Below, in pieces: positions 2,403 through 59,160 of a stretch of 64,000 nt of DNA (position 1 is the stretch's first letter; each line of letters opens with the position of its first letter). The position numbers and the translations under genes are program-made. The stretch is from an uncultured Alphaproteobacteria bacterium (GTDB lineage: Bacteria > Pseudomonadota > Alphaproteobacteria > Rs-D84), in NCBI GenBank assembly GCA_934232895.1, contig CAKQGH010000002.1, positions 15,287 to 79,286 on the forward strand, read 5' to 3'. Below the pieces are notes generated by a model. It was given only the letters and a program-made list of their open reading frames with translations. It searched no databases and had not been told where the DNA came from.

Positions 2403-5400
2403 ATGGCAAATTTAATTGTTGATGGAAACTGGGCAGCGGCGGATGTCGCATACAGATGTGTTGATTTCGCGGCGATTTATCCCATTACCCCCAGCAGCAC
2501 CATGGGCGAATTGGCGGATGAATGGTCGTTCCAGCATAAGAAAAATATCTGGGGCGCAATTCCGCAAATAATTGAAATGCAATCCGAAGGCGGCGCGGCC
2601 GGTGCAATGCACGGTGCGCTGCAAATGGGGGCATTGGCCACAACATTTACCGCATCCCAGGGTTTGTTGCTGATGATTCCGAATATGTACAAAATTGCCG
2701 GTGAACAAACGCCGTTTGTTATGCATGTGGCGGCACGTGCGTTGGCCACGCATGCGTTGTCAATCTTTGGTGATCACAGCGATGTTATGTCCGTACGCAG
2801 CACGGGTTTTGCATTATTGGCCAGTCATAATGTACAACAGGCGTCTGATATGGCGGCGATTGCGCATGCGGCAACATTGCGGTCGCGCGTGCCGTTCTTG
2901 CATTTCTTTGATGGGTTCCGCACCAGCCACGAAGAATCGCGTCTGGACAGAATCAGCGACGATGTTTTGCGTGAAATGTTGCCGGATGATTTGGTGTTGA
3001 AAAATCATGCGCGCGGAATGTCACCGGAGCACCCAACAATTCGCGGTACCGCACAAAACCCCGATGTATATTTCCAGGGACGCGAGGCCGCTAACCCACT
3101 GTACGTCGCAACCCCCGGTATAGTCCAGGAATGTATGGATAAATTTGCCAAACTGACGGGGCGGCAATATCACCTGGTCGACTATGTCGGTGACCCGGCG
3201 GCCGAAAATGTTATTGTTGCCATGGGCAGTGCATGCGAAACAATCGAAGAAACATTGGAATTTTTGCCCCGTGGTTTGGGCCTGATAAAAATCCATTTGT
3301 ACCGTCCATTCCCGGTTGATGCATTTCGTGCGGCGTTGCCAAAAACGGTTCGGCGCATTGCGGTTTTGGACCGAACCAAGGAACCAGGTGCCATTGGTGA
3401 ACCGTTGTACCAAGATGTTAAAACCGTTGTTGGTGATACGGCGGCGGTGTTCGGTGGCCGATATGGTTTGGGGTCCAAGGAATTCAAACCCCGCGATGTC
3501 AAGGCCGTGTATGAAAACCTGATGCGTGATACATTGCATCACAATTTCACCGTTGGCATTGACGATGATTTGTCGGGGCTGTCGCTGAAAACGGACCCGG
3601 CGTTCGCGGTCCAGGCGGAAAATTTCAAGACCGCAATTTTGTACGGTATTGGTTCGGACGGAACGGTTGGCGCGGTTAAAAACATTGTAAAAATTGTTGG
3701 TGAAAATTCTGATTTATACCCGCAATCGTATGCGGTATATGATTCAAAAAAATCTGGGGGACTGACCGCGTCGCACATTCGTTTTTCGGATGCCCCGATT
3801 AAAAGCCAATATTTGATAGAGGTTGCCGATTTCATCAGCGTATCGAATTTTATGATAGCCCAGCGTTTTGATGTATTCCGTGGCCTGCGTGCCGGCGGAA
3901 CGGTTATGATAAATACATCTATGGCACCCGATGTGGCATTTGCGAATCTGCCGCGGGAAACCCAGGAACATTTGATTCGTATGCGTGCGAATGTATATTT
4001 CTTGGATGCAAATGGCGCCGCCGCCGAATTGGGTTTGGGAAACCGCATCAACACATTTATTATGCTGAATTTCTTTAACCTGACCCAAATTATTGATCCG
4101 GCGGTTGCGGCAGAGGCAGCCAAGGTTGCAATTGAAAAAACATACAAGAAAAAAGGTATGGATGTTGTCCAGGCGAATTGGACCGCGGTTGATCGGGCGG
4201 CTGAATATTTACACCGGTACACATTGCCGTCGTCTGTATCGAATTTTGCACCTGATTTTGTGCCATCTATGACGGCGGATGCGCCGGCGAAAATTGCGGG
4301 CACATTGGGTGAAATGGCCGCCCAACGCGGCGATGCAATACCTGTGTCGCGTTTCCGTGTTGATGGTGAATTTGGTGGCGGTCAATACCCGGTTGGTACA
4401 TCAAAATATGAAAAACGTTCCATTTCCGAACGCGTTGCAACATGCGATTTGGAAAAATGTGTCCAGTGTGGGCGGTGTTCTATGCTGTGCCCACATGCGG
4501 CCATTCGTATTCGCGCATTGACCGCGGACCAGGTGGACGCCGCGCGCGCGTCTGGCGTTACGGTTGTGCCGATGAAAACACCAGAACTGGGCCCCAATAT
4601 GTATTACACATTGGCCATATCCCCGGCCGATTGCACGGGGTGTGGCGTGTGTGTGAAAAATTGTCCGGTGGCGGCATTGGCAATGAAAAACGCGCGTGAT
4701 GCGGCGGCGGAAAATCAACGCGCATTTGATGCGGTTGTGAAATTGCCGGACACACCACGCGAAAAACTGAACCTGAATATTCCAAAGCACGTTGAATTAT
4801 TGCCGCATTATTTTGAATTCCCGGGCGCATGCGCGGGGTGTGGCGAAACACCATACATTAAATTGATGTCGCATTTATTTGGCGACCGTATGGTGGTGGC
4901 GAACGCAACGGGGTGCTCGTCAATCTATGGGGCGAATTTGCCGACAACGCCATGGACGCGCGACGCGAATGGTCGCGGGCCGGCGTGGTCTAATTCGCTG
5001 TTCGAAGACAACGCGGAATATGGGTTGGGTATGCGTTTGGCATTGAACCAGCAACGCGACACCTTGCGTGGAATGCTGTTTGAATTAAATGTTCCAAATG
5101 TTGATGCATTGTTTGCCGAAACAGATGTCGCGGCCCAGCGGAAGAATGTTGAAATGTTGCGCGCGCGCCTGGCAAACGATAAAAATCCGCGTGCCCGTAT
5201 GGCGGAACCGTTGTTGGATGCGTTGGTTGATAAATCTGTATGGATTGTCGGCGGTGATGGTTGGGCATACGATATTGGTTATGGGGGGCTGGACCACATT
5301 TTGCACAGTGGTGAAAATGTAAACATATTGGTTCTGGATACCGAGGGATATTCCAACACCGGTGGCCAGCAATCAAAATCAACACCTTTCGGCGCCAGTA

Positions 5401-7636: not shown

Positions 7637-7662
7637 AAACCGCCCCACGGGGCGGTTTTTAA
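7637..7662 (+). terminator. rho-independent terminator
   Basis: aaaaccgccccacggggcggttttt immediately after the stop. Confidence 0.7.
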
Positions 7663-8095
7663 TTAGAGAGCAAAGAGCAATGAGCAGAGAGCAATGAAAT
7701 CCTCTTCACTGGGCGAAGGGGTGTCCGCGCAAGCGGACGGGGTAGTGGTAAATATGTCCCCGCAGGGCAATGGTGACCCTCCTGCGCGGGGATGACAATT
7801 CTTTTTATGTGCTGTGTTCTGTATCTTCGTCGCTGACTAAGTTCTCCTCCTGTGGAGGAGTACCGCGTAGCGGGGTGGTCTTGAGAGTGCGCAAAGTTGT
7901 ACAAAGTTTCAAAAAACGACTACCCCGCCGGGCATATGCCCGGCACCCCTTCTGGCCATAAGGGGATTTAATTGCGTATCCCTGTTGTGGTCTAAATTCC
8001 CCTTCGCTGGCGAAGGGGTGGACGCGTAGCGGACGGGGTAGTGGTAAACAAGTCCCCGCAGGGACAAATAAAAAAACTCCATAAAAATCCCCGCA
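7663..8095. repeat. cluster of RPE-like short palindromic repeat units
   Basis: Units recurring elsewhere in the window: 'ccccttcgctggcgaaggggtg' (x2), 'gacggggtagtggtaaa' (x2), 'gtccccgcaggga' (x2), 'ctcctcctgtggaggag...gggtggtcttgagagtgc', and AGAGCAR heptamers after the stop. Confidence 0.8.
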
Positions 8096-9519: not shown

Positions 9520-9795
9520 TATAGAGTTTTAAGAATGTGGTTCGCGTGTTGGCCTCTCTACGCAATCGCCCACGAAATAAAAAATTTCGTGGGTGGTTCC
9601 CGGAGGGGAATTTGTTTTTCACGTCGCGGGATGAATTCCCCTTCGCTGGCGAAAGGGTGTCCGCATACGCGGACGGGGTAGTGGTAAAACGACACCCCGG
9701 CACTCCGTGTCACCCCTCTGGCCAGAGGGGAACAAAGCAAGTGCGCCGAATGGCGCACACATTATTTGAACTTTGCACTTTGGTATTTGAACTTT
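9520..9795. repeat. RPE-like palindromic repeat cluster
   Basis: 'cccacgaaataaaaaatttcgtggg', 'ccccttcgctggcgaaagggtg', 'gacggggtagtggtaaaacgacaccccggcactccgtgtcacccctctggccagaggggaac'. Confidence 0.75.
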
Positions 9796-17348: not shown

Positions 17349-18611
17349 ATGAAAAAAGCAAAAGATATTATAAAATCCATCCCAGTGGAAAAATTAGTTT
17401 GTGCCATGGCGGCGGTATTGGCCGTTGTTGCAATTATTGTTGTTGTGTCGTCGCACAGCGGCGGCCACCATGCAATGCATGACTCGCATGACGATTGTCG
17501 TGCGGTGGTGAATGTTGCACCGGGCGATACATTGTCCAAATTGTTGTTGGAACGGGGGCTGTCGCATAACGATGTTGATGCGATTGCGCGTATTTTGAAA
17601 TCTGAGGCGTCCATTACAACATTGCGTGCCGATAACGATAAAATCGAATTCGTTCGCGCAAATGACGATGCGCCGGTATCGAAAATTATTATCATTCCAT
17701 CCCCCTGGCGCCAGGTTGAATTGACCACGGGTGCGGGCGGCGGTTGGTCTTGCCGCACGGTGGATATTCAACGCGACACGCGCGCGGTGTATAAATCGGG
17801 CGAAATTATGGATGGCGACAGTTTTTACCTGGCGGGAATGCGCGCGGGTATTCCGGCGGGCATTTTGGCCGATGTTTACGATTTGTTAGCATTTGAAATG
17901 GATTTTGAGCGCGATGTTCGTGCCGGCCAGAAATTTTCCGTTTTATACGAAGAAAACTTTTCCGATGGTCAAAAAATAGATAACGGCCATGTGTTGGCGG
18001 TGGAATTCCAGGCATTGCGTGGCGATGTAAAAATGTACCGTTTTCGCAAATCTGATGGCACAATTGGGTACTATGACGCCGACGGCAATGGCGCAATTAA
18101 ATCATTAAAGCGCACACCAATAAACAACGCCAAAATAACCAGCAGTTTTTCTGGTCGCCGTAAACACCCCGTGTTGGGATTTACCCGTGCGCACAAAGGT
18201 GTTGATTTCCGTGCATCAACCGGCACACCAATTCCGGCCGCGGGTGCGGGGCGCGTGGTTGCGCGTGGATATAACCGCGGGCATGGAAACTATGTGAAAT
18301 TGCGTCACAACGGTTCGTATGAAACATTGTATGCGCACATGTCCAAATTTGCCAAGGGCGTAAATGTTGGTACCACCGTACGCCAGGGCCAAACAATTGG
18401 CTATGTTGGTTCAACCGGGTTATCAACGGGGCCGCATTTGCATTACGAAATTATTAAAAACGGCGTGCATGTAAACCCAATGACGGTGAAATTGCCGGCA
18501 ATCAGCAACCTGGACGCGGCGAATAAAAAGAAATTCATCGAGTATCGCAAGACATTGGAATCGGGCATTGAACGCCTGCGCGATAATCCAAAATTGTTTA
18601 TCCAGCTGTAA
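17349..18611 (+). CDS. M23-family metallopeptidase (membrane-anchored)
   Basis: N-terminal TM segment. 'HKGVDF...' and 'GSTGLSTGPHLHYEI' M23 motifs. Confidence 0.7.
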   Translation: MKKAKDIIKSIPVEKLVCAMAAVLAVVAIIVVVSSHSGGHHAMHDSHDDCRAVVNVAPGDTLSKLLLERGLSHNDVDAIARILKSEASITTLRADNDKIEFVRANDDAPVSKIIIIPSPWRQVELTTGAGGGWSCRTVDIQRDTRAVYKSGEIMDGDSFYLAGMRAGIPAGILADVYDLLAFEMDFERDVRAGQKFSVLYEENFSDGQKIDNGHVLAVEFQALRGDVKMYRFRKSDGTIGYYDADGNGAIKSLKRTPINNAKITSSFSGRRKHPVLGFTRAHKGVDFRASTGTPIPAAGAGRVVARGYNRGHGNYVKLRHNGSYETLYAHMSKFAKGVNVGTTVRQGQTIGYVGSTGLSTGPHLHYEIIKNGVHVNPMTVKLPAISNLDAANKKKFIEYRKTLESGIERLRDNPKLFIQL

Positions 18612-19592
18612 TAGTGTAAAAAAGAGCAATGAGCAGAGAGCAGAGAGCAATGAAGCGCGCCATTCGGCGTCTTATATTCTTGTCATTCCTGCGTAGGCAG
18701 GAATAGGGCCTTGGAAATTACTCTCACTTGGTGTTGTACAATATTTGGTAAAAAAGTGAATATCAATATCACTGTACACCGCAACATTCTGGGTTTGGCT
18801 CGTTGACACTCGCACTGTATAGTCCCTATTCCTGCCTGCGCAGGAATGACAATCTTTGGGTTCTGTCATTGCGAGCGGAGCGTGGCAATCCAGTAAACGA
18901 CACCCCGTCGCGTTGCGCCACCCCGGCTTTCCAGAGGGGAACAAAGCTCATCATCGTCGCGGAGCAAAATCCCCTTCGCTAAGCGAAGGGGTGACCACGA
19001 AGTGGGCGGGGTAGTGGTAAATACACCCCCGCGGGGCAATGGTGACCCTCCTGCGCCGGCATGACGTTTTTTTGTGCTGTGTCCCTGTATCCCCATCGCG
19101 GAGCAAGTTCCCCACCGGTGGAGGGGTGGCCGCCAGGCCGGGGTGGTCTTGAGAGTGCAATGTGGAATAAATGTAAGACAAAAGACCACCACTCCGCTGC
19201 GCGGTACTCCTCCACAGGAGGAGAACTTGGTATGCTCCCGTTGCGGACTTCTCCGCTGGCAGAACCCCGGGTCGGGGTGATAATTCTTTTTTTGGGGGGG
19301 CGCATCCCTAGCGTGGACTCTCACTTGCCGTCATACCGGCGCAGGCCGGTATCTATTGCCCCGCAGGGACAAAAAGACCACCCCGGCACTCCGTGCCACC
19401 CCTCCACCGGAGGGGAACTTAGTATGTACCGAGAATAAACAAAATTCCCCGTCGCTTGGCCCCCCACGCAAAAAAAAATTTCAATTTCGTGGGACCAGTG
19501 TCGTGGTGGCACGAAGTGCCGGGGTAGTGGTGATTGCGTGTTGCCGGCATCCAAAATAATTCCTGGTGCGGGCGGGGCGGGTGTGATATGGT
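18612..19592. repeat. ~1 kb intergenic hotspot made almost entirely of RPE-like palindromic units plus a MITE copy
   Basis: AGAGCAR heptamers, MITE (18682-18850), 'gtcattgcgagcggagcgtggcaatcca', 'tccccttcgctaagcgaaggggtg', 'ggggtagtggtaaa', 'gttccccaccggtggaggggtg', 'gtcataccggcgcaggccggtat', 'caccccggcactccgtgccacccctccaccggaggggaac', 'cccacgcaaaaaaaaatttcaatttcgtggg'. Confidence 0.85.
18682..18850. mobile_element. MITE-like element copy 1 (~169 bp, ~27 bp hairpin-forming terminal inverted repeats)
   Basis: TIRs 'gtcattcctgcgtaggcaggaataggg' / 'ccctattcctgcctgcgcaggaatgac'. The interior matches copies at 55576-55746 and 58808-58978. Confidence 0.8.
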
Positions 19593-40211: not shown

Positions 40212-40667
40212 TTATTTTATGCATGGCACAATCTTGCCGATGATTGTGCTGTTGCCACCGTATTGCAATTGATATTTATATCCACATGGAACCGGAATTG
40301 AAAACGACATATATCGTGTGGTATTCAGGTCGTCATCTTGGAACATATAGGTCATGACAATTTGGTCGTTGGCGTCCAGTATTTTTATACTGGCGGTTGC
40401 GTTCCATATTAATTTTATGTATCCCTGTAAAAACAGGTTTTCATTGGCGGTATATGTGCCGATGCCTGTAATGGCCGATGATCTTGCATAATCGGGCATT
40501 AAATTAAACACCGCATCGGCGCGTGCCAGCATTGTGCCGCCGGCGGTCACGCCATCGTGCACGCGAATGGTCTTGTTGGTGGTGTCAACGGTAATCTCGC
40601 CATCGGCCCCGGTAAAGTTTGCGTGCTCGTCGGCGGTCCCACGCCGAAACTGAATTTGTCTTGCCAT
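40212..40667 (-). CDS. small protein with phage tail-fibre-type N-terminal domain (MxxxIQxRRGT...)
   Basis: 'MARQIQFRRGTADEHANFTGADGEITVDTTNKTIRVHDGVTAGG' resembles the conserved N-terminus of phage tail fibre / Mtd-like proteins. Confidence 0.45.
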   Translation of the reverse strand: MARQIQFRRGTADEHANFTGADGEITVDTTNKTIRVHDGVTAGGTMLARADAVFNLMPDYARSSAITGIGTYTANENLFLQGYIKLIWNATASIKILDANDQIVMTYMFQDDDLNTTRYMSFSIPVPCGYKYQLQYGGNSTIIGKIVPCIK

Positions 40668-40908: not shown

Positions 40909-42264
40909 ATGAAATGTTTTATATCTGCTTTTTTGTTGGGGGCGTTTATGCCGGCCGTCGCCGCCGCGGTGGACGCGGCCCCGGCCGCCGGCACAACTGA
41001 AATTACCATGACCACGACCCAGGCCATGCAACTGGCGGGAAAATTGGTACAATCGGGCGATATTGAACACGCAACCCAAATTTTAACTATGACGCCCAAC
41101 ACCGGAAACGGCGAACTGGAAACCGAGCGGTGGTTTTTGCTGGCGCAAATTGCATCGCGGCGGGGCGATATTGATGAGGCAATTCGCATTTATCAAAAAA
41201 TACTGGATGCACGCCCCAATGCGGCCCGCGTGCGGTTTGAATTGGCATTGTGCTATATGCACCAGGGCCGGTGGTCGCGTGCGGATTATCATCTGCGCCT
41301 GGCCATGGCGGGGGACGATTTGTCCGACGATGTAAAACGGATGATGAATTACTATCGCTATGTCGTGCGCCAGAACAAAAATTGGAACGTGTATTTTAAT
41401 TTTGGTGCCGCCCCCGACAATAACATAAACAACGCGACCGGCGGTGCAGAGTGTGTTATGACCATCTGGGGGGCGTTCTGTCGCGATTTGCCCGCGCCGG
41501 AATCGGCGGTTGGCACCAATTTCCAGCTGGGTGGTGATTACGAATTCAAATTATCAGACCGGTGGCGCTGGAAATCAGATGCGGGCATATACACAAATAT
41601 TTATAACAAACACCAATACGACGATTTGTATTTGTCCGCCGGGACCGGCCCGCGGTATGTATGGTCGCGTGGCGATGTGTGGTTGGCGGGAACGGTTGCG
41701 CGGCGCTGGTACGATTGGCGCCGGTATAATTGGTCGGCTGGGGCCAAGCTGAATGCTAATTATGATTTCACGCGCAAAATGTCGGGCGGGTTGACATTGT
41801 CGGCAATGAATAATCGCTATGATGAATATGGCGATTTCCTGGATGGAAAAACATACGGCGCGTCCGCCCGCATAGTGTATTCGTTTAACGCGGGGGTGTA
41901 TACGGTGCTGCGTGGTGGTTTTTCGCGTGAATTGGCGGCCAGCCCGACATATTCGTATCGCCAACCGAGCCTGTCCGTGGGCATAGGTGCGGAATTGCCA
42001 TGGGGATTTGGCATTTATGCCGAGCCCAGCATTTATTGGACACGATATGACGGCGCGCGTTGGGCGGTCCGTGACGGCCAAATCAGCGAGATTACCGAAC
42101 GCGATTTCACGCATCGGTATGCGGTGTCGGTGTCAAATAATAAACTGGATGTACTGGGGTTTGTGCCGACCATCACGGTCAGTTATACCCGTCGCGATTC
42201 CAATATGTGGCAGCGCGAGTTTAGCAAAACCGCCATTGAATTCACCATGATGCAACGGTTCTAA
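40909..42264 (+). CDS. outer-membrane protein with N-terminal TPR region and C-terminal beta-barrel (DUF560/Slam-like architecture)
   Basis: Signal peptide MKCFISAFLLGAFMPAVAAAV; TPR-like helices 'ALCYMHQGRWSRADYHLRLA'; ~300 aa of alternating beta-strands ending in Phe. Confidence 0.4.
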   Translation: MKCFISAFLLGAFMPAVAAAVDAAPAAGTTEITMTTTQAMQLAGKLVQSGDIEHATQILTMTPNTGNGELETERWFLLAQIASRRGDIDEAIRIYQKILDARPNAARVRFELALCYMHQGRWSRADYHLRLAMAGDDLSDDVKRMMNYYRYVVRQNKNWNVYFNFGAAPDNNINNATGGAECVMTIWGAFCRDLPAPESAVGTNFQLGGDYEFKLSDRWRWKSDAGIYTNIYNKHQYDDLYLSAGTGPRYVWSRGDVWLAGTVARRWYDWRRYNWSAGAKLNANYDFTRKMSGGLTLSAMNNRYDEYGDFLDGKTYGASARIVYSFNAGVYTVLRGGFSRELAASPTYSYRQPSLSVGIGAELPWGFGIYAEPSIYWTRYDGARWAVRDGQISEITERDFTHRYAVSVSNNKLDVLGFVPTITVSYTRRDSNMWQREFSKTAIEFTMMQRF

Positions 42265-42451
42265 ACAGAGAGCAGAGTGTAGAGAGCAGAGAGCAATGAA
42301 AAGTGAGCAAGTGACAGAGCGATAAAGTGATACAGTTTTTTCTACGAACATAATTCATTTTCTGCGGAATATTATTTTTAAGTCGTCATACCGACGAAGG
42401 TCGGTATCCATTGCCCCGCAGGGACTGATAATACCACTACCCCGTCCGCCC
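42265..42451. repeat. left ~185 bp inverted repeat (IR-L) of the invertase/adhesin cassette
   Basis: Reverse complement matches 45338-45523 at ~90% identity, including the unique stretch 'aagtgagcaagtgacagagcgataaagtgatacag...ttctgcggaatattatttttaagtcgtcataccgacgaagg...ctgataataccactaccccgtccgccc'. Confidence 0.8.
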
Positions 42452-42596
42452 AGGGCGTCCACCCCTTCGCCAGCGAAGGGGAATTTGATAGAGTCACCCT
42501 CTTGTCATTGCGAGCGCAGCGTGGCAATCCATAAAACGACACCCCGGCACTGCGTGCCACCCCTCTCGCCAGAGGGGAACTTTCATTGCTCTCTAT
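42452..42596. repeat. RPE-like unit cluster inside the cassette
   Basis: 'caccccttcgccagcgaagggg', 'gtcattgcgagcgcagcgtggcaatcca', 'caccccggcactgcgtgccacccctctcgccagaggggaac'. Confidence 0.75.
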
Positions 42597-42626
42597 GAAA
42601 AAACCGCCCGGTGGGGCGGTTTCGAA
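42597..42626 (-). terminator. rho-independent terminator of the adhesin gene
   Basis: On the minus strand: cgaaaccgccccaccgggcggtttttt. Confidence 0.65.
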
Positions 42627-42648
42627 AGGATAAAAAACAAACTGTCAA

Positions 42649-44352
42649 TTAAAACAATTTGAATTTATAGTTCGTGCCGGCACGGAACGCAACATCTGCG
42701 TCAGAGATACCAGCGCCAACATTGACAGACCAGTTATTGGTCAGACCCATCGCGGCACCAAATGCCACCGCGGATTGGCTGTTATAGTTGCCAAAACCGG
42801 CGCCAACGGACACTTCGCCGCGTTCAACACCAGATACGGCGACCGACGACAATGCGACCGAGCTGGCAATACCCGCAGACAGGTTTTTGTCCAGTTTATC
42901 GATTCTTTGGTCGGTGTATGCATTTGCAGCCGCCAGCGAGAATGCCGCGCGTTCATCCGCGTATGCTTTCGCGCTGTTCAATGTCATCGCATCTTGGGCA
43001 ACCGCATATTCTTTTGCGGTGTTCAGTGTTGCTTCGTCAGCCAAGGCAAACGCTTCACGAACGGCGGTATCTTTTTCATCTGTGTATGTTTTTGCAGATG
43101 CCAAAGTTGCCTGGTCCCCAGCGGTCATATCAGAACGAATTTGATCATCAGCTGCGGCAAATTCACTGCGAACTGCGTCGTCCCCAGCGGTCATATCAGA
43201 ACGAATTTGATCATCAGCTGCGGCAAATTCACTGCGAACTGCGTCGTCCCCGGCGGTCATATCAGAACGAATTTGATCATCAGCTGCGGCAAATTCACTG
43301 CGAACTGCATCGTCCCCGGCGGTCAAAGCATCATTGATTACGCCACCGTCGGCAACCGATGCGGAAATAGCGTCGTTTGCACGATTGTCAATTGTATCGG
43401 TAATCGGCGCATCAAAGATTTCGCGCGCGGCCGCCTGGCGTTCATTGTCCGCGGTCCATGCATTGGACGTGGTTTCCTGGTTCGCCAATGCGGCGTTCCA
43501 TTGTTCGCCCGCGTTTGCAATTGTTGCATAACGTTCGTTCAGTTCGTTGACCGTATTTGTGTCGTTTTCAAACACTGTATTGGCGGCATTGAATAATGGT
43601 GCTTCTGCGGCATATTCCGCACCTGTTTCGGTCTTGGCGGCATCAACACTTGCCGTGTCGGTTGTGAACGCCGTCTGCATTTCGTTGAATGCGTTTTCCA
43701 ATGCCGAACCCGGTTCTGGATCAACCAGTCCGCCACGGTCGTCGACCAATCTGCTGCCATCCGCATTCAGACGAAATTCACGACCTTCTGCATCTGTGTA
43801 TTTATAGCGTGTGCCATCAAATGTCGGGGCGTCACCGTTTTTCACGGTGATGGTTGCATCGTCTCCAGATACGTATGTGCTGTTCAGTGTAACATCCTGG
43901 GAAAAATCAGGTACAGATTCGCCCAATGTCACATCTTCGCCCGCGCTGTTTTTGTATTTGTAATTTGCGCGATCCATTGTTGCGCCTGCAACAATGTCCT
44001 GGGTCGTGGTGATGTCACCAGTTGCGCCGGATGTGCCGATATAATCGGACTGTTGCGGCAGGCTGTCCGTATTTTCTGGGTCGTATGCCTGCCAGTTGCC
44101 AGCGGTGTCTTTGTATTTAAAGTCGTCCGCGTTTGGTCCATCGGCATAGTTTTTGGTAACCGTACTGCCATTATAATCAGTATATGTGTAATTATAATTT
44201 GCAGAATCCAGGTCTGTGCCAGCATTCTGTTCTGTGCCGTTTGCGGTCGTATATTTACCAGCAAATGTCACATCAGTAGTTGCCGCGTGTGCGCCGGCGA
44301 ACGCCAAAATGCCCGCCAGTGAAAACGCAGTCAAAACCAAAGGTTTTTTCAT
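42649..44352 (-). CDS. trimeric autotransporter adhesin (type Vc; YadA-like C-terminal membrane anchor)
   Basis: Signal peptide MKKPLVLTAFSLAGILAFAGAHA; stalk with neck-like 'TLxSAKxYTD' repeats and three identical 22-aa repeats. C-terminus 'IDKLDKNLSAGIASSVALSSVAV...GEVSVGAGFGNYNSQSAVAFGAAMGLTNNWSVNVGAGISDADVAFRAGTNYKF' matches the YadA_anchor pattern. RBS aagagga. Confidence 0.8.
   Translation of the reverse strand: MKKPLVLTAFSLAGILAFAGAHAATTDVTFAGKYTTANGTEQNAGTDLDSANYNYTYTDYNGSTVTKNYADGPNADDFKYKDTAGNWQAYDPENTDSLPQQSDYIGTSGATGDITTTQDIVAGATMDRANYKYKNSAGEDVTLGESVPDFSQDVTLNSTYVSGDDATITVKNGDAPTFDGTRYKYTDAEGREFRLNADGSRLVDDRGGLVDPEPGSALENAFNEMQTAFTTDTASVDAAKTETGAEYAAEAPLFNAANTVFENDTNTVNELNERYATIANAGEQWNAALANQETTSNAWTADNERQAAAREIFDAPITDTIDNRANDAISASVADGGVINDALTAGDDAVRSEFAAADDQIRSDMTAGDDAVRSEFAAADDQIRSDMTAGDDAVRSEFAAADDQIRSDMTAGDQATLASAKTYTDEKDTAVREAFALADEATLNTAKEYAVAQDAMTLNSAKAYADERAAFSLAAANAYTDQRIDKLDKNLSAGIASSVALSSVAVSGVERGEVSVGAGFGNYNSQSAVAFGAAMGLTNNWSVNVGAGISDADVAFRAGTNYKFKLF
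43123..43320. repeat. 3 x 66 bp perfect tandem direct repeat inside the adhesin stalk coding region
   Basis: Unit 'ggtcatatcagaacgaatttgatcatcagctgcggcaaattcactgcgaactgcgtcgtcccc[a/g]gc' x3, encoding AGDDAVRSEFAAADDQIRSDMT. Confidence 0.9.
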
Positions 44353-44386
44353 GTTTTTTCCTCTTATTTAAATTAATTTAAACCGT

Positions 44387-44408
44387 GATGCGTGGTGCAC
44401 CACGCATC
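44387..44408. promoter_or_regulatory. perfect 22 bp palindrome (10-2-10) 35 bp upstream of the adhesin start codon
   Basis: gatgcgtggtGCaccacgcatc. Confidence 0.5.
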
Positions 44409-44412
44409 TACT

Positions 44413-44438
44413 CTTACACAAACGAACGTTTGTGTAAG
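44413..44438. promoter_or_regulatory. perfect 26 bp palindrome with 12-2-12 geometry (hix/gix-like candidate recombinase or operator site)
   Basis: cttacacaaacgAAcgtttgtgtaag. Confidence 0.5.
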
Positions 44439-44471
44439 TGCCAGTGGTCAGTATTCTTACGGCAACGGCCA

Positions 44472-44503
44472 AATGTCTGGAATCCGTTATAATCCAGACA
44501 TTT
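44472..44503 (+). promoter_or_regulatory. 10 bp inverted repeat enclosing a consensus TATAAT -10 box (candidate operator-overlapped promoter of the recombinase gene)
   Basis: aatgtctggaatccgTTATAATccagacatt. Confidence 0.4.
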
Positions 44504-44588
44504 TTTGTTGTGGAATAATATGATTTGAATATAGAAAAAAACAGTTGATTTAATCGTTCGTTTAAAATGACAGAAATAGGAGGAAAAA

Positions 44589-45242
44589 ATATCATTCATA
44601 GGATATATTCGTGTCAGTTCAAATAAACAAACTGTGGCACATCAACGTTTTGAAATTAGCCAGTTTGCTGCTGCACACAAAATCACAATAGACCGGTGGG
44701 TCCAAGAAACGGTATCGTCGCGCCAACCGTTGGATAAACGACAGTTGGGCGAATTATTGCATGAATTGAAACATGAAGATGTTTTGATTTCGTGTGAAAT
44801 ATCGCGCCTGGGGCGTTCGTTGCTGGAGGTAATGCGAATCTTGGAAACATGTATGAACAGTGGCGCCCAAGTTTGGACAATCAAAGAAAATTACCGATTG
44901 GGCGATGATATACAAAGCAAAGTTATGGCGTTTGCGTTCGGACTGGCCGCAGAAATTGAGCGAAATTTAATATCGCAACGCACTCGGGCGTCGTTGAACA
45001 ATATTCGCGCCGCAGGCAAAAAGTTGGGGCGCCCATTTTCGGCACAATCAAAAAAACTGAAACTGACGCGCAATGCACATAAAATAAAGCAATTACTGGA
45101 TGCGGGGGTATCACGATATAAAATTGCCCAAGTTATGCATGTCCAGCCTATAACGGTGAATCGTTTTACCAAGCGCATGGGGTGGGATAAATTTATTAGA
45201 GAGCAGGGTGCATCCGTCTCCGCTGACGCTCCGCCGCGATAA
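44589..45242 (+). CDS. serine recombinase of the DNA invertase/resolvase family (Hin/Gin/Pin-like)
   Basis: In-frame N-terminus 'IGYIRVSSNKQ' (catalytic Ser motif) lies upstream of the track's GTG start (44634). It is preceded by AGGAGG at 44577-44582 but has no ATG/GTG/TTG; a possible ATA start is at 44589. 'ISRLGRS', 'EIERNLISQRTRASL', 'GRP', C-terminal HTH. Confidence 0.8.
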   Translation: MSFIGYIRVSSNKQTVAHQRFEISQFAAAHKITIDRWVQETVSSRQPLDKRQLGELLHELKHEDVLISCEISRLGRSLLEVMRILETCMNSGAQVWTIKENYRLGDDIQSKVMAFAFGLAAEIERNLISQRTRASLNNIRAAGKKLGRPFSAQSKKLKLTRNAHKIKQLLDAGVSRYKIAQVMHVQPITVNRFTKRMGWDKFIREQGASVSADAPPR

Positions 45243-45262
45243 AGAGAGCAGAGAGCAATGAC

Positions 45263-45290
45263 GCGCGCCGGTGGCGCGCCTGTTTTTTAT
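45263..45290 (+). terminator. rho-independent terminator after the recombinase gene
   Basis: gcgcgccggtggcgcgcctgtttttt. Confidence 0.7.
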
Positions 45291-45337
45291 CGTCGCGGAC
45301 CAAGTTCCCCTCCGGTGGAGGGGTGGTGCGAAGCACC

Positions 45338-45523
45338 GGGCGGACGGGGTAGTGGTATTATCAGCCCCTGCGGGGCAATGGTGGCCCTCCTTCGTCGGTA
45401 TGACGACTTAAAAATAATATTCCGCAGAAAATGAAATATGTTCGTAGAAAAAAACTGTATCACTTTATCACTCTGTCACTTACTCACTTTCATTGCTCTT
45501 TGCTCTCTGATCTTTGCTCTCTG
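45338..45523. repeat. right ~185 bp inverted repeat (IR-R) of the invertase/adhesin cassette
   Basis: Reverse complement of 42265-42451. Confidence 0.8.
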
Positions 45524-45527
45524 AATA

Positions 45528-45556
45528 AGAAACGCGCCGGTGGCGCGTTTCTTATT
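45528..45556. terminator. bidirectional terminator (aagaaacgcgccggtggcgcgtttctt) at the 3' end of the tolC-like gene
   Basis: Perfect hairpin flanked by A/T runs on both sides. Confidence 0.65.
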
Positions 45557-46841
45557 CCTGTTGTGTTGTTGTCAGCCCCAGATTTTCCGGTGTCAACAGG
45601 CCCGTGGCCGACATAACTGCAAAGAATGCCGATATGCGCCCAAATTTTGCGTTGGCCAATGATACATTGGTGTTCAACAATTCTTGTTCCGCATTCAGCA
45701 CATCCAACACCGTACGGCGCCCGCGTTTTTGTTCGTCACGCGTTCCGTTCAATGCCATTTTGGCGGCCGCAACGCCAGATTCGGCGGCGCTGATTGCCGC
45801 CGCCTGGGCGTCGTACATATTCCATGCCTGGTGCAATTTTTCAGATATAACGCGGCGAGCGTTTACGATTTGCGCCTGAATTCCATCAACGGTATATCGC
45901 ACCTTGTCCACATTGGCAAAGGCGTTGCCCTTGTCATACAGTGGCATTTTCAAATACACACCAATGCGGCTGTCGCGGGCGCGGTCAATGTATGGAATAT
46001 CATCCACCTGCATTACGGCACCGCGTACATCAACCGATGGCAACATAGAATGACGTGCGACAACAATTTGTTCACGCGCGGCGCGTTCGTGTGATTCCAG
46101 CGCGCGCAGGGCGGGGTGATTTTTCAGTGCATATTCATTTGCCGCATCAACCGATTCTGGGAATAATTTTTCCATGCGTTCCAAATCAATTTCTGTAAAT
46201 TCGGTGGGCGCATCACCCGCAATACGGCGGAATGTTTCAACGGCGTTGTCGTATTTTGCCTGGGCATCGGCCAATGCATATCGTGCCATTTCCACACGCG
46301 CAGATGCCTGGGCGGTGTCGGTTTTGGTTAAACGGCCAACACGCGCATTATCGGCGCAATAGTTATAATATTCTTGTAATACGCGCTGATTATTTTGGTT
46401 CAGTTTCAAAACCTCGGCCGCGCGCAGAACATCGACATAGGCATTTATTGCGTTCAAAAATACATCAGATTCGGTTGCATACAATGATGCGGTTTCGGCA
46501 TCGCGTGCGGCGCGCGCACCCTTGTATTGGGCAATGGTTGAAAAGCCCTGGAATATATTTTGTTGAAATTCAACACCAATGCCGGTTGGGTTATAATCAA
46601 ATGTGTAATCGCCAATTTTGGTACGCGCCGCGCCCGCATTTGCCGACAGTCCCAAATACGGTTTGAACCCCGCACTGGACGCCGATACATTGGCATCGGC
46701 GGCGTTCACATTTGCTCGTCCACTGTTTATTATTGGGTTGGTTTCGTATATGGTTTGCAGTTCCGAATACATATCGGCATTTGCCGATGTTGCAATCGTT
46801 GCCAACATCATACCAGCCAAAAAATAATTGTTTTTCATCAA
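45552..46841 (-). CDS. TolC-family outer membrane efflux protein
   Basis: Signal peptide; two-repeat OEP structure; 429 aa. Confidence 0.75.
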   Translation of the reverse strand: MMKNNYFLAGMMLATIATSANADMYSELQTIYETNPIINSGRANVNAADANVSASSAGFKPYLGLSANAGAARTKIGDYTFDYNPTGIGVEFQQNIFQGFSTIAQYKGARAARDAETASLYATESDVFLNAINAYVDVLRAAEVLKLNQNNQRVLQEYYNYCADNARVGRLTKTDTAQASARVEMARYALADAQAKYDNAVETFRRIAGDAPTEFTEIDLERMEKLFPESVDAANEYALKNHPALRALESHERAAREQIVVARHSMLPSVDVRGAVMQVDDIPYIDRARDSRIGVYLKMPLYDKGNAFANVDKVRYTVDGIQAQIVNARRVISEKLHQAWNMYDAQAAAISAAESGVAAAKMALNGTRDEQKRGRRTVLDVLNAEQELLNTNVSLANAKFGRISAFFAVMSATGLLTPENLGLTTTQQE

Positions 46842-55290: not shown

Positions 55291-55858
55291 CAGGAACCAC
55301 CCACAAAATCTGACGATTTCGCGGGGCCCGGGTCGGGGTGGCACGGAGTGCCGGGGGAGGGTTATTGTTAAAGAGCAATGATTGTGCTCGCATTTGCTCG
55401 CAACACCATATACCTGGATTCCGGGGTCAAGCCCCGGAATGACAAGGTCTGGGTACTTCTTTCCTTTTACGGATATTATTAAAATTTTGGTTGTGGACTT
55501 TCACGTATGTGTCATCCCGGTGCTTGACACCGGGATCCAGGTGAATATATGTGCGCGGAACGCGCCTATCTTATTGTCATTCCTGCGTAGGCAGGAATAG
55601 GGACTATACAGTGCGAGTGTCAACGAGCCAAACACAGAATATTGCGGAATACGGTAATATTGGTATACGCCACCTTTTACCAAATATTGTACAACAATGA
55701 ACGAGAGCAATTTTCAAGACCCTATTCCTGCCTACGCAGGAATGACAATAGCAAGCGCGCCGAATGGCGCGCAACATTGCGCTCTGCTCTCCTGGTCGCG
55801 GCGGAGCGTCAGCGGAGACGGATGCTCTTTGCTCTCCCGCCCCTGTGGGGCGGGCGGA
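55291..55858. repeat. repeat-rich intergenic region (RPE-like units and a MITE copy)
   Basis: AGAGCAR-like motif; 'tcattccggggcttgaccccggaatcc'-like hairpins; MITE at 55576-55746; 'gctctgctctc' repeats. Confidence 0.7.
55576..55746. mobile_element. MITE-like element copy 2 (interior in the opposite orientation to copy 3)
   Basis: TIRs 'gtcattcctgcgtaggcaggaataggg'/'ccctattcctgcctacgcaggaatgac'. Confidence 0.8.
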
Positions 55859-58745: not shown

Positions 58746-58807
58746 TAGAGCATAGATAACAGAGCATAGAGAATAGATAGTGCGCCATCCGGCGCACTTG
58801 CCATGTT

Positions 58808-58978
58808 GTCATTCCTGCGTAGGCAGGAATAGGGGCTTGAAAATTGCTCTCGTTCGTTGTTGTACAATATTCAATAAAAATAGGTTGATACCAATATTAC
58901 CGTATTCCGCAATAGTCTGTGTTTGGCTCGTTGTCACTCGCATTGTATGGTCCCTATTCCTGCCTACGCAGGAATGAC
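58808..58978. mobile_element. MITE-like element copy 3
   Basis: Same TIRs; the interior is the reverse complement of the copy 2 interior. Confidence 0.8.
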
Positions 58979-59160
58979 AATTTTTTGGGAATTAGTGTTT
59001 CCTGTCATTACGAGCAGAACGTGGCAATCCAGAAAACGACACCCCGGCACTTCGTGCCACCCCGGCTTCCCGGCGGAAAACCTGGATTGTGCTTGTCGCG
59101 GTAAAATTTTTATTGTATTTTCTGGTGTGCGCACTACAATGGCAATGAATAATAACCCAG
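58979..59160. repeat. RPE-like unit cluster
   Basis: 'cctgtcattacgagcagaacgtggcaatccagaaaacgacaccccggcacttcgtgccaccccggcttcccggcgg'. Confidence 0.7.

Follow-up and report, generated by a model that had tools for sequence, protein, structure and literature searches.

A predicted 130-bp serine-recombinase inverton between an adhesin gene and an Mpi-like recombinase gene in an uncultured gut alphaproteobacterium

Introduction

Small serine recombinases encoded next to the DNA segment that they invert are known from Hin/hix, Gin/gix, Cin/cix and Pin/pix of Salmonella and the phages Mu, P1 and e14. The geometry of hix is 12-2-12, giving sites of 26 bp, and the Hin/Gin subfamily depends on a Fis-bound recombinational enhancer as well as on negative supercoiling. 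The locus described here resembles these systems in having a small serine recombinase gene adjoining the segment and predicted 26-bp sites of the 12-2-12 type with an AA/TT core in inverted orientation. It differs from them in several ways: the recombinase is only a distant relative (the closest solved structure is that of the Gin invertase, with E 9e-9), the segment comprises 130 bp instead of about 1-4 kb, and two half-site classes (TTACACAAASG and TTGATTTAAWCG) are in use.

In Bacteroides, the invertase Mpi reportedly “globally modulates”, that is, it is said to act in trans on many loci. Mpi-controlled promoters of B. fragilis are flanked by repeats of the type ARACGTTCGTN, and five capsule invertons of B. 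intestinalis by the inverted repeat GTTCGTTTAA (PMC8375218); the Mpi repeat consensus is used here second-hand, as quoted in that article. The present locus is similar to the Mpi invertons of the B. fragilis capsular polysaccharide and B. intestinalis CPS loci with regard to the best HMM match of its recombinase (NF009949), the shared repeat core AAACG-TT-CGTTT (compare ARACGTTCGTN and GTTCGTTTAA) and a short segment upstream of surface-structure genes, which measures 130 bp here and 183-186 bp in B. intestinalis. In contrast to Bacteroides Mpi, the recombinase gene lies in cis and abuts its own inverton, the host is an uncultured gut alphaproteobacterium and not a member of the Bacteroidota, the predicted target is an outer-membrane adhesin rather than a polysaccharide operon, any promoter on the segment must be of the proteobacterial sigma-70 type, and the recombinase stays 9 bits under the family cut-off.

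Short invertible elements with a recombinase gene on one side and an adhesin or autotransporter gene on the other have also been described in uropathogenic E. coli, namely fimS with FimB and FimE and ipuS with UpaE (PMC6083910). Their ON/OFF phase-variation logic is likewise predicted here from sequence, whereas fimS and ipuS are served by tyrosine recombinases with other site structure and chemistry, and not by a serine recombinase.

Here, we present an analysis of the intergenic region between a divergent adhesin and recombinase gene pair within a 64-kb stretch of DNA, referred to as the window. With high confidence, the region is interpreted as a serine-recombinase inverton with two crossover sites, A and B, between which a segment of 130 bp, presumably carrying one or more promoters, would be flipped. 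Such a switch is a known type of bacterial on/off DNA inversion and not a new principle; its example in uncultured gut Alphaproteobacteria is new, and a literature search found no paper describing this switch.

Results

The adhesin/recombinase locus

The features of the locus, in window coordinates, are as follows.

42266-42459 and 45330-45523: long inverted repeats of about 124-190 bp, 86-95% complementary, bracketing the adhesin and recombinase genes
42649-44352, minus strand: trimeric-autotransporter (YadA-anchor) adhesin gene (Pfam YadA_anchor, E 2.9e-11)
44367-44382: AT-only palindrome, the fourth dyad, TTTAAATT/AATTTAAA = TTTAAATTAATTTAAA
44387-44408, minus strand: P1, GATGCGTGGTG/CACCACGCATC, uninterrupted 22-bp palindrome (11+0+11)
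44413-44438: P2, predicted left crossover site (site A), CTTACACAAACG-AA-CGTTTGTGTAAG, perfect 12-2-12 dyad with core AA at 44425-44426; PWM score 27.2 bits, the highest in the window
44427-44556, no strand: predicted invertible segment of 130 bp between the two core dinucleotides
44465-44493, plus strand: candidate sigma-70 promoter ACGGCC-17-TATAAT, within the segment and now facing the recombinase gene
44471-44503: P3, AAATGTCTGGA-N11-TCCAGACATTT, perfect 11-N11-11 dyad
44545-44570: predicted right crossover site (site B), TTGATTTAATCG-TT-CGTTTAAAATGA, core TT at 44557-44558; PWM score 24.3 bits, the second in the window
44589-45242, plus strand: small serine recombinase gene (Mpi-like), 217 codons (Pfam Resolvase, E 2e-30, residues 4-145)

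In addition to the resolvase domain, the recombinase shows a weak match to HTH_38 (residues 165-192), which with E 6e-4 falls below the cut-off. Among the NCBIfam models, it strongly matches only NF009949, “master DNA invertase Mpi family”, with 263.3 bits against a cut-off of 272, and the next family reaches 33 bits. NCBI gives the Mpi family name to homologues with 70-76% identity. We treat the protein as lying in or beside this family, that is, as Mpi-like with borderline membership. The columns of R8 and S10, which we take to be the catalytic residues of serine recombinases, are invariant in the recombinase alignment.

The adhesin gene is probably the gene placed under control of the switch, and many clades have a gene of this type to the left of the switch. 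Surface proteins are nearly always what the gene on the side of site A encodes across clades, including YadA-type and other trimeric autotransporters, classical autotransporters and lipoproteins, which fits a portable phase-variation cassette. Among the matches listed, the nearest genome records belong to MAGs of uncultured gut “Rickettsiales” or Alphaproteobacteria (UMGS1303, UMGS1304, a Hadza MAG and UBA1185).

A cluster of dyads in 236 bp

The interval that separates the adhesin start (44352, minus strand) from position 44589 extends from 44353 to 44588. Perfect inverted repeats with arms of at least 9 and spacers of at most 14 occur only 26 times across the 64 kb, the majority being terminators. 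Shuffling the 236 bp 20,000 times never gave three dyads with arms of at least 10, and only 86 shuffles contained at least one. The clustering of dyads in this interval is not due to chance. An Rfam search of positions 42000-46000 gave no meaningful match.

An earlier note on this DNA had delimited the 236-bp interval correctly and had named three perfect dyads in it, all of which are present. Some details were different from those given there: P1, reported as 10-2-10, is a palindrome with uninterrupted 11+0+11 geometry, and P3, reported as aatgtctgga-N12, is a perfect dyad whose arms comprise 11 bp and whose spacer comprises 11 nt, not 12. The TATAAT that had been equated with the spacer of P3 exists at 44488-44493, where it covers the end of the spacer and the first base of the right arm. 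The inventory of three was incomplete, as the AT-only palindrome at 44367-44382 and the partner site at 44545-44570 had been overlooked, and the codon at 44589, taken as the recombinase start, is ATA and not ATG, GTG or TTG. According to the evidence given below, P1, P2 and P3 are three different things: a leader hairpin, a putative crossover site and a promoter-overlapping dyad.

Sites A and B

Site B is a weaker dyad than P2 and is located 132 bp to its right, 32 nt ahead of the recombinase start. The two sites have only their core-proximal bases in common (AAWCG-WW-CGTTT). Since the cores are complementary (AA versus TT on the plus strand), the sites stand in inverted orientation.

In the syntenic gut-metagenome loci L001-L012, TTACACAAACG-AA-CGTTTGTGTAA is kept base-for-base while the flanking bases diverge, and the exact conservation of P2 holds across relatives with 81-86% identical recombinases. 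In L019-L022, which have 74% recombinase identity, another genomic context and an adjoining YadA-type adhesin gene, the place of P2 is occupied by ATTACACAAAGG-AA-CCTTTGTGTAAT, with arms altered symmetrically. The same layout was found in about 60 loci from many clades, with complementary cores (AA/TT or TA/TA) spaced by 102-153 bp (mostly 126-142), a segment of 100-151 bp (mostly 124-140) between the cores, and a site B conserved 32-67 nt ahead of the recombinase start.

A position weight matrix (PWM) was built from 140 half-sites, the consensus next to the core being T-N-A-Y-W-Y-A-A-(A/T)-(C/G)-G, followed by the core WW. Sites A and B are the only places in the 64-kb window that score above the shuffled best of 16.1 bits. 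The minus strand of site A, AAACGTTCGTT, matches the Mpi repeat ARACGTTCGTN exactly; site B, as AATCGTTCGTT, has one mismatch to it and includes GTTCGTTTAA exactly (44556-44565).

An exact and 2-mismatch search of the window for three half-sites gave no extra copies above chance and no second exact CTTACACAAACG. This null result does not refute crossover, because the partner site B shares only core-proximal bases with site A. The search for a second half-site copy, which the earlier note had recommended as a check, was therefore misleading when run in the window, and the partner, for which a place elsewhere, possibly at silent adhesin cassettes, had been suggested, turned up as site B within the same intergenic region. 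As a query against metagenome contigs, TTACACAAACGWWCSWTT proved too degenerate, with about 280 chance matches expected by our own estimate in 596 Gb; real sites among the matches listed are those of L051, L081, L094, L114 and L121.

Inversion in natural variants

Recombination at the cores of A and B would flip the 130 bp between them, so that a flipped window would carry the junctions cTTACACAAACG-TT-CGTTTAAAATGA and TTACACAAACG-AA-CGATTAAATCAACTG. Both flipped-junction sequences were predicted before an inverted relative was found.

A scan of metagenome contigs with the recombinase alignment returned 80 loci. The junctions of L147 (86% recombinase identity) are gTTACACAAACG-AA-CGTTTaaatcaa and cTTACACAAACG-TT-CCTTTaaaatga, exactly as predicted. 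The 129 bp between its cores are the reverse complement of those of L146 (127/129 identical), and the flanks of the two loci are collinear (90/96 and 40/41). In reverse complement the L147 segment is 98% identical to that of L144, compared to 61% for the best direct match (L217). The flipped junction is also present in five more loci, namely L153, whose segment is 84% identical to that of L154 when reverse-complemented and 58% when compared directly, and L159, L173, L178 and L180. As the latter four reach only 68-72% identity to their best match in reverse complement, versus 58-60% directly, they rest mainly on the junction sequences. One related contig is binned as Bacteroides fragilis and is probably mis-binned.

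The window-like orientation accounts for about 90% of the assemblies (about 9:1). In a single case, contig L008, the sequence starts exactly at site B, at the first base common to both orientations, which hints at mixed orientation in one sample, as a branch in the assembly graph would give. The additional 86%-identity relatives L224-226 and the short contigs L142 and L143 contained no more flipped copies or breaks at the cores.

Comparison of these assemblies shows that relatives have undergone inversion at the two site cores, and both orientations occur in nature. P2 is accordingly labelled here as the putative left crossover site of a 130-bp segment worked by the adjacent Mpi-like recombinase. 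The earlier proposal of a hix-like 12-2-12 crossover site at P2 agrees with breakpoints that fall, in natural variants, exactly at the 2-bp core. All three dyads had been listed as crossover or regulatory candidates; this held for P2 as a crossover site, but not for P1, a leader hairpin, or P3, a lineage-specific dyad.

The adhesin leader

In the sense of the adhesin mRNA, a hairpin is located at the place of P1 in every adhesin-linked clade, typically GTGAC-loop-GTCAC. Single-sequence folds gave it in 18 relatives, with varying stems and loops. At DNA level, the corresponding bases form no palindrome in the relatives with 86% identity, and the extension of the stem to a 22-bp palindrome is found only in the window and partly in L051. 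The hairpin of L001, CGUGGCGCA-ucc-UGCGUCACG, includes a G.U pair and thus works only in adhesin-sense RNA. In the window, the adhesin-sense leader folds with -17.8 kcal/mol (z = -4.8).

The leader is arranged in the order P1 hairpin, AT palindrome and ribosome-binding site. The AT palindrome is conserved in sequence across clades (TTTTTAATTAATTAAAAA in relatives, TTTAAATTAATTTAAA in the window) and was the only element recovered by RNAalifold from the adhesin leaders, since the variable loops of the hairpin at the P1 position misalign. P1 is best read as a predicted leader hairpin of the adhesin transcript. It corresponds to this conserved hairpin and is not a crossover site.

P3 and promoters on the segment

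The candidate promoter keeps its position in the genus-level clade, with ACGGCA-17-TATAAT in L051, TCGGCA-17-TAGAAA in L010 and TTGGCA-17-TAGAAT in L001. The L001 version scores 12.9 bits, second-best of all invertons and just under L157 (12.9), and the -35 hexamer of the window (ACGGCC) is poor. The spacer sequence varies among these loci, yet they stay promoter-like, which speaks for a real promoter at this position in the genus-level clade. In other clades, the sequence found there could not be aligned as a promoter, and simple sigma-70 scans, a standard one and one with our own PWM over 56 distinct invertons, revealed no promoter position or strand that is consistent across clades. TTGATT in the inner half of site B together with TAAAAT in its outer half was considered as a recombinase promoter and discarded, the spacer being only 12 bp.

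P3 lies inside the segment, over the spacer and the -10 hexamer of the candidate promoter. It is a perfect dyad only in the window, L051 and L142, an imperfect dyad in the sister clades, and in more distant clades cTTGATTTTTCTGATTTTTT is found at the aligned position. P3 is a lineage-specific dyad over the candidate promoter and not a crossover site. The predicted transcriptional start falls within its right arm, so P3, if active at all, would be an operator at DNA level and not a terminator. Its role as an intrinsic terminator was dismissed as well because the -10 candidate is in the loop, so that transcripts would lack the left arm, and because no upstream transcript is expected that would need stopping.

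Promoters on the segment would be read out through one of the two sites, reaching the adhesin leader via site A or the recombinase gene via site B. Only about 60 bp, containing the hairpin, the AT palindrome and the ribosome-binding site, separate site A from the adhesin ATG. A standard promoter followed by a leader of normal length would hardly fit there, so adhesin transcription should enter from the segment via site A. If the segment carries one or more promoters, a flip would therefore phase-vary the adhesin. In the orientation of the window, the best candidate promoter faces the recombinase gene, and after inversion it would face the adhesin gene. The present state of the window may tentatively be called adhesin OFF or low, a call that we regard as evenly balanced because the promoter scans are inconsistent across clades and the skew of about 9:1 is unexplained without selection: if the window-like orientation expresses the recombinase and the flipped one does not, flipped copies should accumulate unless they are selected against, yet the skew is opposite.

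The ATA start codon of the recombinase gene

The recombinase frame contains no ATG, GTG or TTG ahead of the IGYIRVSS motif. ATA occupies the exact position of the ATG in relatives with 81-86% identity, and an AGGAGG sequence (44578-44583) is located five bases before it. The ATA recurs in L051 (94.5% DNA identity) and L142 (97% protein identity), which are independent samples of the same lineage, and it is for this reason regarded as a real trait of the lineage. In all other relatives examined, the recombinase start is ATG. AUA can initiate at a low level, which suits a recombinase required in trace amounts. The ATA start probably cuts recombinase synthesis strongly, and switching in the lineage of the window would then be very slow or locked.

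Discussion

The interpretation as an inverton has to be weighed against readings that place recombination elsewhere or do without it. Perfect dyads in a divergent promoter region have the classic look of operators, P3 overlaps a -10-like TATAAT, and the window contains no second exact half-site, so that P2, and perhaps P1 and P3, could be bound by a transcription factor or an autorepressing recombinase that controls the divergent genes with no recombination involved. This is very unlikely, since in natural variants the stretch from P2 to site B is inverted and the breakpoints coincide with the 2-bp cores, which contradicts an exclusive operator role of P2, and since P1 and P3 are not kept as DNA dyads beyond the closest relatives. 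As an additional function, the recombinase may act as a repressor of transcription when it sits on A or B. Still less credible is an inversion of the whole 3-kb module of adhesin and recombinase genes at the long inverted repeats, the other place of action named in the earlier note. The length and complementarity of these repeats and their position around both genes speak for such a model. However, they are composed of mosaic intergenic elements, of which the window has further copies at five places (7650-8060, 9620-9720, 18610-19440, 55570-55840 and 58800-59060), the PWM scan found no recombinase-site match in them, and syntenic relatives keep gene order and orientation constant, with no case of the whole module inverted among them. 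In L010, moreover, an OEP gene follows 23 bp after the recombinase gene, too close for a right-hand repeat to fit in between. The long repeats are best classified as dispersed intergenic repeats that are not part of the switch.

Two other readings accept the inverton and modify its reach. Site A might also recombine with sites elsewhere, in the manner of a master invertase or shufflon, moving the switch to other surface-protein genes or nesting segments. Loci with identical recombinases (P0009) differ in their left flanks, the point of joining being exactly the site A core (ATAACATAAACC-AA in L014 versus TCGATTTAAAGG-AA in L013, L015, L017 and L018), L013 carries a segment of about 1.1 kb that is bounded by inverted repeats of about 60 bp and ends at site A, near-identical switches in the 68% clade adjoin different surface-protein genes, and, by the title of Coyne 2003, Bacteroides Mpi acts in trans on many loci. 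Against this, only A and B exceed chance within the 64-kb window, and the core of the far site in L013 is TC and thus mismatched; we consider this extension improbable. A locked or decaying switch in the lineage of the window deserves more weight and is quite possible, though we lean somewhat against it. The ATA codon would then abolish or nearly abolish recombinase synthesis, and P1 and P3 would have been perfected by drift or unrelated causes. In favor of this are the replacement of ATG by ATA in three independent samples (window, L051 and L142) when all other relatives have ATG, and the common orientation of the window and L051, the two members in which orientation can be read, as the contig of L142 begins within the segment. 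On the other hand, the recombinase frame shows no other defect: the columns of R8 and S10 are invariant, a strong AGGAGG stands five bases ahead of the ATA, and sites A and B are still near-consensus. The inverton with crossover at A and B remains our preferred reading.

With this reading, the cluster of palindromes becomes a defined switch with exact predicted cut sites, and Mpi-type invertons, known from Bacteroides capsule loci, would also exist in uncultured gut Alphaproteobacteria, with the recombinase gene in cis and with genes for outer-membrane adhesins and autotransporters as neighbors. The half-site consensus derived from about 60 loci could serve for the annotation of such switches in metagenomic data and for telling whether adhesins are ON or OFF in gut samples.

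A more speculative view, which we hold to be rather unlikely, sees in the switch a portable, self-contained cassette that has spread among uncultured gut Alphaproteobacteria and docks beside interchangeable surface-protein genes, and whose orientation asymmetry may bias the reaction and build a hybrid promoter. If this were true, the crossover core AAACG-TT-CGTTT shared with Bacteroides Mpi invertons would imply exchange across phyla in the gut, and a hybrid promoter could form across the junction (A-tract plus TTGATT, 17 bp and a fixed -10-like hexamer). One orientation consists of two “homo-palindromes” (A/A and B/B) and the other of two hybrid sites, a difference that might favor one direction of the reaction and account for the skew of about 9:1 in the assemblies.

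Contig start and possible exchange at the crossover sites

The 48.6-kb metagenome contig L008 (ERZ28615889 scaffold_853) has as its position 1 the exact start of AAACGTTCCTTT, and this base is the first one at site B, the recombinase-side crossover site of the 130-bp inverton, that is common to both inverton orientations. In a population of mixed orientation, the assembly graph is expected to break at this very point.

At the adhesin-side crossover site, site A, the loci L013 and L014 carry different left halves joined at the site A core but encode the identical recombinase protein, P0009, whose gene is followed by a Dam methylase gene. In L013, a non-coding segment of ~1.1 kb (~3700-4810) with ~60-bp inverted repeats at its bounds ends at site A and has the core TC at its far site; it may be another invertible segment, one that is nested or has decayed. 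The human-gut clade L189-L223 (recombinase identity 65-71%) contains near-identical cassettes of inverton and recombinase with differing surface-protein neighbours, namely autotransporters of 750-850 aa, several lipoproteins, and small proteins. Judged from this clade, gene replacement seems to have a hot spot at the position next to site A.

Conserved elements within the inverton and the adhesin leader

The alignment of invertons revealed conserved boxes within the segment (window 44450-44459), among them TATTC(C/T)TA ~25 bp from site A. Other clades contain a doubled TGATTTTT motif, which is similar to the inner half of site B. Site B is preceded by a long A-tract within the inverton, which could bend the DNA and thereby aid synapsis across only 130 bp. 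Outside the inverton, the adhesin leader harbors a palindrome composed of A and T only:

44367-44382, AT-only palindrome TTTAAATTAATTTAAA, immediately upstream of the adhesin ribosome-binding site

Its sequence is kept in distant clades as TTTTTAATTAATTAAAAA. A similar sequence, CTTTAATTGCAATTAAAG, adjoins a classical autotransporter gene in locus L195.

The adhesin gene itself includes three tandem 66-bp (22-aa) repeats at 43108-43330. Adhesin lengths of 511 to 567 aa in relatives suggest that the repeat number varies among them.

Recombinase start codon and closest relative

The start position of the recombinase gene (44589-44591) reads ATA in three independent samples of the window lineage (the window, L051 and L142), whereas all other relatives have ATG there. 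No in-frame ATG, GTG or TTG was found upstream of the recombinase catalytic motif in this lineage. The closest relative, L051 (CAVGNU010000004.1), shows 94.5% identity across switch and recombinase and was deposited under a bin named Bacteroides fragilis, probably through mis-binning. Its adhesin-recombinase module adjoins a homologue of window 35.3-35.6 kb; the block of glycosyltransferase and Slam genes is missing there. In the window, a further ORF has the glycosyltransferase genes on one side and the Slam gene on the other:

40212-40667 (-), 151-aa ORF, match to the domain Mtd_N (N-terminal domain of the major tropism determinant) at E 1e-15

Dispersed intergenic repeats

Intergenic repeats of mosaic structure are dispersed over the window:

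42266-42600, 45240-45560, 7650-8060, 9620-9720, 18610-19440, 55570-55840 and 58800-59060, mosaic intergenic repeats

Among their components are runs of AGAGAGCAGAGAGCAATGA, hairpins of the form CCCCTTCGC..GCGAAGGGG and the unit GTCATACCGNCGNAGGNCGGTAT, and the repeats resemble the intergenic mosaic elements of the Neisseria type. The long inverted repeats around the module (42266-42459 and 45330-45523) are created by these dispersed elements.
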